10,481 nucleotides of DNA from positions 1 through 10,481 of the IMG/VR virus record IMGVR_UViG_2671180963_000001. One strand, 5' to 3'. A program made the position numbers and the translations under genes. The DNA is from a virus. Lineage: Monodnaviria > Loebvirae > Hofneiviricota > Faserviricetes > Tubulavirales > Inoviridae. Below are positions 6,721 through 8,786 of the stretch, in pieces. Under the pieces are notes generated by a model. That model was not told where the DNA came from. It was given only the letters and a program-made list of their open reading frames with translations, and searched no databases. Numbering within the stretch: the first letter of the stretch is position 1; each line of letters starts with the position of its first letter.

Positions 6721-7206
6721 ATGAATGCCTGTATGAATAAAACAGAGAGTTCACTGGTAATGGCAGCAGACAAAGCATGCGCAGAAAGGATCAAACAATC
6801 GATTCTTCAGAACTTCACGTACGATGATATTGAAAATGAAACCGGGATCAGTGTCAGTACATTGAAACGCCTGGCATCTGGTGACCGTGAACCGAAACTC
6901 ATCGAAATTCGACAGATTGCAAAAGCTACAGGAAGGAATCCGGTTTGGTTGGCGTTTGGAAACGACGCAGGTTATGAAATTGAAACCGTGTCCGCAGATA
7001 TGAAATTAGTTGAGCCAACAGCCAGGTACGAAATTAAAGGAGCTACAGATAGCTCAGCCGATCATGAAGTAAAGATCAGGGTCATCGCTGCGATAAAAGA
7101 CATGCGTTTGGAAGATGTTGTTTTTATTGAAAGAATGACAGAGTTACTCAATCTCCAGAATACAATTCAGAACATTTCTGGACGAAAAATGAAGCCGCCA
7201 AGATGA
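6721..7206 (+). CDS. Phage CI-like repressor family HTH regulator, 161 aa
   Basis: HTH region ETGISVSTLKRLASGDREPKLIEIRQIAKATGRNPVWLAFGND resembles the phage CI-repressor N-terminal DNA-binding domain. Transcribed divergently from rep. Start taken at ATG 6721 four nt after AGGAGG (6711..6716); the track starts at 6673. Confidence 0.6.
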   Translation: MNACMNKTESSLVMAADKACAERIKQSILQNFTYDDIENETGISVSTLKRLASGDREPKLIEIRQIAKATGRNPVWLAFGNDAGYEIETVSADMKLVEPTARYEIKGATDSSADHEVKIRVIAAIKDMRLEDVVFIERMTELLNLQNTIQNISGRKMKPPR

Positions 7207-7213
7207 TAACGTG

Positions 7214-7258
7214 CCCCGGGAAACCGGGGTAAAGTTCGGGTGTCACAGAACCCCGAAC
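7214..7258. other. Cluster of GC-rich hairpins in the regulator/ORF76 spacer
   Basis: Hairpin 1 at 7214..7229 (CCCCGG GAAA CCGGGG, GNRA-type loop). Hairpin 2 at 7234..7258 (GTTCGGG, 11-nt loop, CCCGAAC). No U-tract follows either, so they are not canonical terminators. Confidence 0.4.
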
Positions 7259-7324
7259 CGCTTCGCGGCACAAAATCGACAAAACACAGCAGTAATACCC
7301 CACTACCTTTCGAAAGGATCAGAA

Positions 7325-7555
7325 ATGCATAACGAAATTGAGAAGTGGCTGAATGAACAAGCCAATGATAATCCAGTTGCGCGAGCTGAACTGGCAAGAA
7401 CTCTTGTCAAAAAAGTTTATGATTTTGTTAAGTTTAATCGCCCTGAGGGTGAGGGGCTGGATGGTCGTGATGGCCCGGAAAGGCAAAGTCTGGCTAAAAT
7501 TGTTGATGCAGCAGAAGATCACTATATAAACATGTGCGAAATAAAAAACAAGTAA
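7325..7555 (+). CDS. Hypothetical small protein, 76 aa
   Basis: ATG 7325 six nt after AGGA (7315..7318); TAA at 7553..7555. The track ORF starts at 7211, probably at a non-ATG codon. No family recognised. Confidence 0.45.
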   Translation: MHNEIEKWLNEQANDNPVARAELARTLVKKVYDFVKFNRPEGEGLDGRDGPERQSLAKIVDAAEDHYINMCEIKNK

Positions 7556-7565
7556 TGTATATAAA

Positions 7566-7591
7566 TCGGCTCAGAGCTAACTTTGAGCCGA
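7566..7591. other. Hairpin (stem TCGGCTCA/TGAGCCGA, extendable) between ORF76 and the AT-rich ORF
   Basis: Inverted repeat read directly. Followed by an A-rich rather than T-rich tract on the plus strand, so not a canonical terminator. Overlaps a possible -35 for the downstream gene. Confidence 0.35.
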
Positions 7592-7611
7592 AATAAAAAA
7601 TCAGAATAATT
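7583..7611 (+). promoter_or_regulatory. Possible sigma70-type promoter for the 364-aa ORF (TTGAGC, 16 bp, AATAAT)
   Basis: Motif match only. It would leave a very short leader before ATG 7628, and no SD is evident. Confidence 0.2.
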
Positions 7612-7627
7612 TGCTAAAGAAATAAAA

Positions 7628-8722
7628 ATGAGAAATAAAATGCAAGATATTTTGTCGAACACATTGAAGGTTATAATTTCATTTTTTGTCGCTCTCATTT
7701 TAAACAAATTGCTGTCTTTGTTCAGAAAGAGACAGCTTTATTTGTCATGCTGGAATTCTATTGAAAATACTTCAATTGCCGACAATGCGTTTACAATAAA
7801 CTCTAGCATATATAACAATGGGAAGGATAAAGAAAAAAACGTAATTATAAAAATGCCAAATGGATTAAGTTGTAGTGTTTTATCATCTACTTATGATTAT
7901 AAAAATGAGAATGGTGAAATACATATAGATAGAGTCCTCCCCTCTGAGAAAATATCAATGGTGATATTGGTTGAAGGTGCAAGGAAATTAGAGAAAAAAA
8001 TAAAGCCGCGGATAAAATCAGAAGATACAAACGGGAAAGTATATCTAACACAAGATGTAGTCCCTCCCAGTGCTGGGGTCTTAACGTTCACCGTTGCTCT
8101 ATTCACAACGGTACTAGGCGCATTAAGCTACATGATAAGCAGCGGGGATTCTCCTGAAAAAACAATAGGATACATCCATAACTCTTTGTTTTACAGTGAT
8201 TACAAAAACAACGGTTTTCTGATTTCCCCATTTGGAAACGACATAATAATAAAAAACTACGACATTGCCAAAAAAGAGTATCCAATAGAATTGGTTGATG
8301 CTAGGAAACTTAACGGTAAAATCCAATATAAATTTAGGCTTGTAAATAAGCTAAACTCTCCAATGATATTTAAAGCCAATTATAGAGTGAATTCAAACCA
8401 TGCTTTTTGGGGGGAGATATCAAATATAAGTGATTTTGCCGATGAACAAACCCAAGAGAAGGCCAAACAAGAAATATATGAAAAGTACCATGCGAACAGC
8501 ACGGTCATCGGTGGAAAGACATTTTTTGATTCGACAGAGGTTATTGTCAAACCCAATAGCATGAGCTATTTAATATTAAGCAGAGATGATAAAAGCTATC
8601 TTACTTTAGATGATATGAATGCTGAGATAGACATCAAGGCATCTGAAGGATTGGTGAATAAAGAGGTAGAGATGTTTTTTCAAGCTAATTACAATGAGAA
8701 AATCAGGTCGCTATTTAAATAG
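7628..8722 (+). CDS. Hypothetical AT-rich membrane protein, 364 aa, two predicted transmembrane helices; candidate prophage accessory (moron) gene
   Basis: Long uninterrupted ORF with about 25-32% GC in sampled stretches, against about 45-48% in the phage core and hipA. Hydrophobic segments near residues 12-31 and 150-170. No recognisable catalytic motif or family. Ends 28 bp before a strong terminator hairpin. Confidence 0.6.
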   Translation: MRNKMQDILSNTLKVIISFFVALILNKLLSLFRKRQLYLSCWNSIENTSIADNAFTINSSIYNNGKDKEKNVIIKMPNGLSCSVLSSTYDYKNENGEIHIDRVLPSEKISMVILVEGARKLEKKIKPRIKSEDTNGKVYLTQDVVPPSAGVLTFTVALFTTVLGALSYMISSGDSPEKTIGYIHNSLFYSDYKNNGFLISPFGNDIIIKNYDIAKKEYPIELVDARKLNGKIQYKFRLVNKLNSPMIFKANYRVNSNHAFWGEISNISDFADEQTQEKAKQEIYEKYHANSTVIGGKTFFDSTEVIVKPNSMSYLILSRDDKSYLTLDDMNAEIDIKASEGLVNKEVEMFFQANYNEKIRSLFK

Positions 8723-8750
8723 TGGTTCGCACAATGACGTTATGCTAAAG

Positions 8751-8786
8751 AGGCCGCTGCGAGAGAGATTTTCGCAGCGGCCTTTT
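8751..8786 (+). terminator. Rho-independent terminator (12-bp perfect stem AGGCCGCTGCGA/TCGCAGCGGCCT, 9-nt loop, TTTT)
   Basis: Perfect inverted repeat 8751..8762 / 8772..8783 followed by TTTT. It lies after the 364-aa ORF stop and immediately abuts the dif-like site. Confidence 0.6.

Follow-up and report, generated by a model that had tools for sequence, protein, structure and literature searches.

We analysed a 10.5-kb stretch of inovirus DNA (IMG/VR record IMGVR_UViG_2671180963_000001, 10,481 nucleotides; hereafter the window), nearly all of which is an inovirus (filamentous) prophage adjoining the Escherichia coli hipBA operon. Two plus-strand open reading frames (ORFs) downstream of the prophage repressor gene, ORF76 and ORF364, occupy a hypervariable cargo slot with exact borders, a 50-nt hairpin element on the left and the folded phage attachment site (attP) on the right. 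We consider it probable, with considerable room for doubt, that a Xer-dependent prophage of the CTXphi type at E. coli dif beside hipA has its lysogeny and accessory end in this region, and that ORF364 is cargo that protects the lysogen. Known biology accounts for most of the overall architecture: the layout of CTX-type integrative mobile elements exploiting Xer (IMEX) is already known, and defence-rich hypervariable regions of inoviruses have already been published for Vibrio. Three things are new here: the ORF364 family, which is uncharacterised; the cis elements that mark the exact slot borders in enterobacterial inoviruses; and the finding that IS1202-family transposons share the slot. The features of the arm are as follows.

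6721-7206, plus strand: Cro/C1-type helix-turn-helix (HTH) repressor, with AGGAGG 5 nt upstream; the RefSeq start at 6673 gives a longer gene
7213-7268: triple-hairpin inovirus cis element of 50-56 nt, left border of the variable slot
7269-8722, plus strand: swappable cargo cassette (ORF76 and ORF364), 1,454 bp
7325-7555, plus strand: ORF76, small three-helix protein, matching phrog_37184 at E 3e-32
7566-7591: stem-loop between ORF76 and ORF364, overlapping a sigma70-like site at 7583-7610
7628-8722, plus strand: ORF364, two-pass membrane protein (alternative start 7640), matching phrog_17621 at E 3e-97
8719-8821: folded attP of the CTXphi type, a long imperfect hairpin of ~100 nt on either strand
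8724-8750: left dif-like site, GGTTCGCACAA-TGACG-TTATGCTAAAG
8751-8786: apex stem-loop of attP, with a GC stem, previously read as a terminator
8784-8816: right dif-like site, reverse complement GGTGCGCATAA-TGTACGACACG-TTATGTTGAAA
8806-8816: XerC arm of the right site, belonging to the chromosomal dif

An earlier, sequence-only reading of the window had described three co-oriented genes divergent from the replication and structural operon. The three ORFs at 6721-7206, 7325-7555 and 7628-8722 are indeed all real and on the plus strand.

A variable slot between two conserved elements

The slot borders and the diversity of cargo between them were observed directly. In BLAST comparisons with related loci, backbone homology stopped at 7268-7275 and resumed at 8715-8723; the right border at 8723 falls one base past the ORF364 stop codon. 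The cassette has 35% GC, compared with 42% for the backbone. At least eight distinct cargo sets were found between 7268 and 8723, four of them with PADLOC matches, as in a hypervariable region of an inovirus. Prophages whose repressor region is 99% identical to that of the window carry other cargo, either MltR plus DUF2971 or a single 369-aa gene. The latter, present in strain 6EVA and six other genomes (locus L002, 3758-4867), encodes an ORF364 homologue (31% identical, E 4e-53); prophages of this type lack ORF76, have a repressor region and backbone 99% identical to the window, and look like the product of an allelic replacement of cargo. Other dif elements, which share only the two cis elements, carry a STM4504-family protein, a SIR2 protein or small unknown ORFs, and the dif element L004 carries a TIR protein with a small partner on the opposite strand. 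The SIR2 cargo was found in dozens of complete E. coli genomes. PADLOC matched the TIR set to a ThsB-like profile (3e-48) and PDC-M50A (8e-32), and the other cargos as SIR2/PDC-S25 (2e-82), DUF2971/PDC-S31 (4e-48) and STM4504/PDC-S32 (3e-9).

Exact-protein counts of 704 contigs for the repressor, 171 for ORF76 and 33 for ORF364 fit a common backbone with rare cargo; the repressor belongs to the phage backbone. The order regulator, element, 0.45-1.4 kb of variable ORFs and attP apex was seen in 11 of 16 inovirus contigs in IMG/VR. The whole 6600-8900 stretch was present in one of 5,426 complete E. coli genomes, that of strain LD39-1. There it forms part of a heterologous tandem array (L001, 1-2000 and 9001-11307): upstream of the prophage that carries the window cargo is a unit that ends in two hypothetical genes and a DUF2971 gene and has an attP junction of its own. 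Many phage genes are split in the LD39-1 assembly, probably by sequencing indels.

The anatomy of the right border and the structure of attP were likewise established directly. Inverted XerC-arm-like sites were found at 8724-8734 and 8806-8816, and the two inverted dif-like sites pair into a hairpin with XerC and XerD arms, as in a CTXphi-type attP. The DNA fold of 8715-8830 gave z = -8.4 on both strands, with a 6-nt bulge in the central region, and the RNA fold of 8723-8800 reached -40 kcal/mol (z = -6.3; 0/200 shuffles). The window matches the prophage-free strain MG1655 from TACATTATGCGCACC onward, the XerC arm of dif; in the alignment, identity resumes at TACA-TTATGCGCACC, and this arm lies 75 bp from the stop codon of hipA. 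The prophage is integrated at the chromosomal dif with its junction on the XerC side, and it combines an inovirus gene set (Rep, ssb, coat, pIII, Zot) with the lack of an integrase of its own. No integrase gene was found in the ORF list of the window, which excludes the left prophage end, or in the full tandem-array unit of L003. Tandem arrays were seen in L001, L003 and L022. Integration is predicted to be Xer-dependent.

The 75-nt attP core (left arm, apex and XerD-like arm) was nearly invariant in all related elements examined, whatever the cargo or its strand. The L004 element has the same core although its TIR cargo lies on the opposite strand. This bears on the strong terminator that the sequence-only reading had placed after the last gene. 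The stable hairpin is real, but it is the apex of the folded attP and is kept with any cargo; an endpoint at 8786 halves the larger fold of 8719-8821. The apex is conserved because it is part of attP, and termination there is at best a secondary role. Its GC stem of 12-17 bp has an A-tract before it and UUUU after it (UCUUU when the opposite strand is read), so that it could, to judge by these features, stop transcription from both directions and keep cargo and hipA insulated. The consensus terminator scanner, which requires a loop of at most 8 nt and at least 5 T, omitted the 8751-8786 hairpin, which has a 9-nt loop and a tail of no more than 4 T; scanner matches in the window equalled chance expectation in number. 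The related claim that no other convincing terminator exists in the arm held, as no other plausible plus-strand terminator was found at a gene end there. An Rfam scan of 6500-8950 gave only chance miRNA/sRNA matches on the attP hairpin, far below gathering scores. For annotation, the case is a caution: what looks like a textbook terminator at the end of a prophage can in fact belong to its attachment site.

The single scanner match in the arm was a hairpin with a T-rich tail at 7711-7736, which overlaps the codons of the invariant LSLFRKRQLY motif of ORF364. It was present only in the closest ORF364 alleles and is probably a by-product of codon choice. We considered it as an intragenic attenuator on the plus strand and rejected this, the hairpin being absent from 8 of 10 homologous genes.

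The left border is the 50-nt element (GGGAAACCGGGGTAAAGTTCGGGTGTCACAGAACCCCGAACCGCTTCGCGG, 7218-7268). It is 96-98% identical in If1, phiAFP1, other E. coli dif elements and an Enterobacter plasmid, and the E. coli dif elements that share it have different Rep and repressor genes. The If1 copy (L007, 3354-3403) lies within the major intergenic region, and the copy in Alteromonas phage phiAFP1 (L008, 3001-3041) directly 3' of a regulator gene; the element was always just 3' of a regulator gene. An exact 31-mer of the element was found in 16 inovirus-sized IMG/VR contigs and a 24-mer in representative genomes of 14 species, out to Aeromonadaceae and Neptuniibacter; loci with the element include L029-L044 and L054-L067. 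The inoviruses that carry it, from E. coli, Alteromonas and other Gammaproteobacteria, have genes that are otherwise <70% identical or unrelated. In a diverged plasmid copy (L050) the second stem is kept through one compensatory change, C-G to T-A. The phage-sense strand contains GCGAAGC, a sequence that folds into an unusually stable DNA mini-hairpin.

The 7213-7268 hairpins have no U-tract, and the element is therefore not an intrinsic terminator. The sequence-only reading had proposed that hairpins at 7214-7258 modulate read-through between the genes; what lies there is instead a widely conserved inovirus cis element at the boundary of backbone and cargo, and it is not gene-specific. It probably acts on single-stranded phage DNA, in complementary-strand priming, as a Rep nick site or in packaging. 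By analogy of position it would correspond to the ig-1 origin region 3' of rstR in CTXphi. The G4-type priming site of IncFII plasmids near ORF76 homologues was tried as an identity for the element and rejected, as the element is absent from L024-L028.

ORF364, ORF76 and their proposed roles

The AlphaFold2 (AF2) model of ORF364 (mean predicted local distance difference test, pLDDT, 82.6) contains two beta-sandwich domains with a transmembrane (TM) helix between them. The predicted layout of the protein is:

Residues ~13-31, TM1, then the FRKRQLY motif and an immunoglobulin (Ig)-like domain at 37-140
Residues ~148-171, TM2, then a helical and beta-sandwich C-terminal domain at 176-364

Both hydrophobic segments resemble inner-membrane helices, and neither the model nor the hydrophobicity profile revealed a signal peptide, an outer-membrane feature or a secretion feature. 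Among 1.84 billion representatives, homologues formed 18 close clusters, with 201 at E <1e-3. Invariant residues lie in TM1 (N26, S30), in the juxtamembrane FRKRQLY and in domain 1 (N.GKDKEK, IDR, SED, VPPS.G). Mean pairwise identity was 56% in the N-terminal half versus 26% in the C-terminal domain, and distant relatives align over the first ~250 residues only.

Database searches with ORF364 gave no match in Pfam or NCBIfam, only an unknown-function family in PHROGs and nothing in a PDB sequence search. Structure searches returned generic Ig-like or carbohydrate-binding folds only, and no enzyme. Neither ORF364 nor ORF76 matched a defence profile in PADLOC-DB v2 (best E >=0.03), and tblastn of both against 50,697 phage records found no match. 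Ten distant members of the ORF364 family had no PADLOC match; domain scans of these gave only a sub-threshold match to the Ig-like FixG_C.

ORF76 belongs to a highly conserved family of 38 homologue clusters with an invariant FVKF.RPEG.G.DG.DG.ER motif and is a frequent gene of inoviruses and IncF plasmids. Its AF2 model (pLDDT 88.6) had no fold match, and searches of Pfam, NCBIfam, PADLOC and PDB sequences found no family, with only an unknown-function family in PHROGs. A homologue is the sole slot gene in a related Enterobacteriaceae inovirus (L019-L023, L042), and others lie near replication genes (repA) on IncFII plasmids that lack ORF364. On Enterobacter IncF plasmids the ORF76-ORF364 pair is accompanied by the 50-nt element and by half of an attP, the left one, without this repressor. 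Two further ideas about ORF76 were rejected: it is not an obligate partner of ORF364, as each gene is found without the other, and it is not XafT, as it has no DUF3653 match.

The distribution of the ORF364 family was also observed directly. Homologues occupy the matching slot in two unrelated inovirus backgrounds: one from Providencia, whose Rep is of the Phage_GPA type and which lacks ORF76, and another at a tandem junction. Others lie at the tail-fibre end of P2-like prophages, again without ORF76, where only the coding region is shared, from 7615 onward. The family is also found on conjugative plasmids, and one homologue adjoins a type VI secretion system (T6SS) Hcp gene. A further homologue lies between PDC-S06 (3e-160), a NACHT protein and PDC-S31, in a locus that resembles a defence island.

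This distribution, the replacement of alleles in the slot and the pattern of a conserved core with a variable domain are as expected of a lysogen-protecting gene in an arms race. We propose that ORF364 would be an inner-membrane lysogenic-conversion protein that shields the lysogen from infecting phage, either by excluding superinfection or through an abortive response. The conserved N-terminal half (TM1 and the first Ig-like domain) would form the working core, and the fast-evolving C-terminal domain would confer specificity. Envelope-level phage exclusion or abortive defence is thus the function we find most likely, at a little under an even chance, and it is argued from association only. 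The sequence-only reading had expected lysogeny-associated protective functions next to the repressor; this fits the defence-type cargos of the slot and the defence-island homologue of ORF364, but slot membership is not diagnostic.

Several observations weigh against a protective role. A number of other slot cargos have no defence annotation in PADLOC, and slot membership is therefore suggestive of defence, not diagnostic. No homology from Pfam, NCBIfam, PADLOC, PDB sequence or fold searches ties ORF364 to a tested defence protein, and its charge distribution is ambiguous as to membrane topology. We also infer the role of the neighbouring 50-nt element solely from position, structure and conservation. 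ORF364 might instead be cargo with an envelope role in host physiology or in the interaction of host and animal. Its lack of similarity to known defence proteins would suit such a role, as would Ig-like and carbohydrate-binding-module-like folds, which are common in adhesion and envelope proteins, the homologue adjoining the T6SS Hcp gene, and the modest in-vivo fitness given by the CUS-1 and Ypf prophages (PMC4266046). The helices, however, are of inner-membrane type and are accompanied by no signal peptide, outer-membrane or secretion feature; the other occupants of the slot mostly have defence-type domains; and both the defence-island context of one homologue and the conserved core with its hypervariable C-terminal domain point to anti-phage activity. 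We therefore regard an envelope role unrelated to phage as quite unlikely.

If ORF364 does protect lysogens, it would represent a new membrane-level defence or exclusion family, and small filamentous prophages of Enterobacteriaceae would trade defence genes as those of Vibrio do. A broader proposal, which we put forward as doubtful, is that ORF364 founds a family of single-gene, membrane-anchored anti-phage or exclusion proteins with a conserved core of TM1 and Ig-like domain and a hypervariable C-terminal Ig-like sensor, carried in dif-linked cassettes in which the two cis elements flank interchangeable defence genes, on filamentous phages and IS1202-family transposons, and that E. coli dif would be an exchange point for Xer-linked defence genes. 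A defence hotspot at hipA/dif was looked for in a survey of E. coli defence islands (PMC10121019), which mentions none.

Expression and movement of the cassette

The repressor is read away from the phage operon across a control region:

5455-6570, minus strand: Rep, in the phage operon
6571-6720: control region between rep and the repressor gene, with back-to-back promoter-like sites and operator-like repeats

The repressor sits in the position of RstR, divergent from rep, and is RstR-like by this position and its HTH_3 domain (E 5e-7). It matches phrog_3557 at E 2.5e-24; the match to NCBIfam phage_RstR is weak (19.5 bits against a cut-off of 80, E 9e-4). Consensus matching alone identified a minus-strand promoter-like site, TTGACA-17-TAGTAT, at 6654-6626 and a perfect TATAAT on the plus strand at 6655-6660. 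The operator-like repeat CGGTGTCAG occurs at 6615 and 6690, 75 bp apart, and AGTGTCAA at 6647. A similar GGTGTCAC is present in the 50-nt element, where it falls within the second hairpin's loop.

The three genes could form one operon expressed in the lysogen from the repressor promoter, in which the 7214-7258 hairpins tune read-through and a dedicated terminator ends the transcript. They are co-oriented, no sigma70-like promoter was found between the repressor stop codon and ORF76, the intergenic hairpins lack U-tracts and would permit read-through, and the A-tract, GC stem of 12-17 bp and UUUU of the apex resemble those of bidirectional terminators. The apex hairpin, however, belongs to attP and is kept with any cargo in either orientation, including the reversed TIR cargo of L004, and the intergenic hairpins are pan-inovirus and present even where no gene of the same unit follows. 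The ORF76-ORF364 pair, moreover, occurs on plasmids without this repressor. Directly 5' of ORF364 there is a sigma70-like site (TTGAGC-16-AATAAT, 7583-7610) together with a conserved stem-loop, and the homologues at the ends of P2-like prophages share the coding region only, from 7615. A single operon of this design is accordingly unlikely in our estimation.

The stem-loop at 7566-7591 is conserved in a plasmid copy of 69% identity (L012, ~9950-9990), although the sequence of its stem has changed there. The equivalent hairpin in L012 is followed by T7 and is therefore a canonical terminator between ORF76 and ORF364 in that copy; in the window an A-rich tract follows, and the stem-loop is for this reason not a plus-strand terminator. 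The opposite-strand cargo of L004 indicates that an operon with the repressor is not a requirement of the design. By sequence comparison, then, the arm is not a single evolutionary or obligatory transcription unit. The three genes may still be co-transcribed in this particular prophage, and we infer the mode of ORF364 expression, like the mechanism of cassette exchange, from such features.

Exchange may depend on the two flanking cis elements, which are the only DNA strongly conserved across diverse elements; for this reason homologous recombination between co-resident or tandem elements would swap exactly the cassette. Alternatively, the 50-nt element may hold the Rep nick site, and rolling-circle replication across heterologous tandem prophages would yield hybrids joined there. 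The formation of hybrids by rolling-circle replication across tandem prophages has been described for CTXphi (cited in PMC4246890). The heterologous array of LD39-1 is of this kind.

The same slot is shared with transposons. In the E. coli chromosomes L005 (4359-7181) and L006, an IS1202-family transposon (annotated 'ISNCY') is separated by 5 bp from the XerC arm of dif; it has inverted repeats of ~50 nt and a 5-bp duplication, AATAT. Its passengers, inside the ends, are the 50-nt element of inoviruses, a single gene of defence type (STM4504/PDC-S32 or SIR2/PDC-S25) and a portion of the inovirus attP that comprises left arm, apex and XerD arm. A decayed IS1202-family copy on an Enterobacter plasmid (L012, 8831-11290) carries ORF76-ORF364. 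The window itself contains no insertion sequence (IS) inverted repeat.

These transposons raise the question of whether the block of element, ORF76, ORF364 and attP is a hitchhiking module outside the infectious genome, either a mini Xer element or a stranded IS1202-family passenger, moved by recombination or transposition and not by packaging. In favour of this, the block (window 7213-8793, 69% identity) lies on the Enterobacter plasmid 3' of the decayed IS1202-family transposase and ends in the right inverted repeat (IRR), and intact transposons with the element, SIR2 or STM4504, and half of attP are present in many E. coli. CTX-type arrays, furthermore, leave the DNA to the right of the last origin unpackaged when there is no downstream copy (PMC4246890). 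Against it stand the absence of an IS inverted repeat from the window, the complete two-armed attP that ends the block and is joined to chromosomal dif as for an integrating phage, and the occurrence of the order regulator, element, cargo and attP inside single inovirus-sized IMG/VR contigs. We judge a hitchhiking module to be very unlikely and retain a prophage-borne cassette. Dif-targeting transposons that share the slot are common in clinical E. coli lineages, which suggests a route for defence genes between phages, plasmids and chromosomes, and with the slot borders (50-nt element and folded attP) as markers, cargo of this kind can easily be sought in other genomes.

Comparison with known systems and neighbouring genes

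The prophage resembles CTXphi, E. coli CUS-1 and Yersinia pestis YpfPhi in being a filamentous prophage at a dif site without an integrase and with a repressor divergent from rep. As in CTXphi-type IMEX, its attP is a hairpin formed by the pairing of two inverted dif-like sites, its junction lies in the XerC arm, and tandem arrays occur. The CTX-type mode of integration (folded single-stranded attP, XerC exchange, no integrase, tandem arrays) has been assigned to CUS-1 and Ypf (PMC4246890). The ORFs adjacent to att beside the RstR-like gene are known to differ between close relatives, as in the contrast of YPO2271/2272 with orf1/orf1a noted when CUS-1 and Ypf were compared (PMC4266046). Unlike CTXphi, in which ctxAB lies beside zot, the prophage in the window carries ORF76 and ORF364 and no toxin, and its slot lies between the 50-nt element and attP. 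Among INPHARED phages no close relative of the backbone was found; only Rep aligned, at ~70% nucleotide identity, to If1.

The closest parallel to the slot itself is in Vibrio inoviruses, whose defence-carrying hypervariable regions (pHVR), between zot and xafT, were described in 2025 (PMC12715192). Both are short variable regions in Xer-dependent non-tailed prophages (~1.9 kb on average in Vibrio, 1.45 kb here) in which anti-phage systems are enriched and whose content is traded with bacteria and with other phages, and degraded relics keep the cargo. The slot described here differs from the pHVR in lying between the repressor with its 50-nt element and attP, with no XafT (DUF3653) homologue detected, in its hosts, which are E. 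coli and other Enterobacteriaceae, and in being shared with IS1202-family transposons.

Prophage morons for exclusion or abortive infection include HK97 gp15, P22 SieA, Pf PfsE and the P2 hotspot genes. ORF364 is like these in being a single lysogen-borne, low-GC gene that lies at the end of a prophage and encodes an inner-membrane protein, and in having homologues at the tail-fibre-proximal end of P2-like prophages. It is not known to resemble any of these in sequence or fold, and a two-Ig-like-domain architecture is not known for them.

Insertion sequences of the IS1202 family are known to target dif and pdif sites (PMC10132070). The ISNCY-annotated transposase of related E. coli loci, 5 bp from the dif XerC arm and with a 5-bp duplication, behaves in the same way. 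The IS1202-family elements of those loci carry the passenger module inside inverted repeats; the window, unlike them, has no such IS.

The remaining genes lie to either side of the arm. The minus-strand operon that includes Rep also encodes ssb, small coat genes, a pIII-like gene, DUF2523, Zot and a secretin, according to the ORF list and the RefSeq annotation of near-identical prophages. The chromosomal genes beyond attP are:

8893-10272, minus strand: hipA
From 10215, minus strand: hipB

Past the secretin gene, the opposite end of the prophage holds a HigA-family antitoxin gene (1-267, minus strand), whose partner toxin gene would be expected just outside the window, and a small hypothetical gene (326-640, minus strand). 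Accessory genes are therefore present at both ends of the phage.

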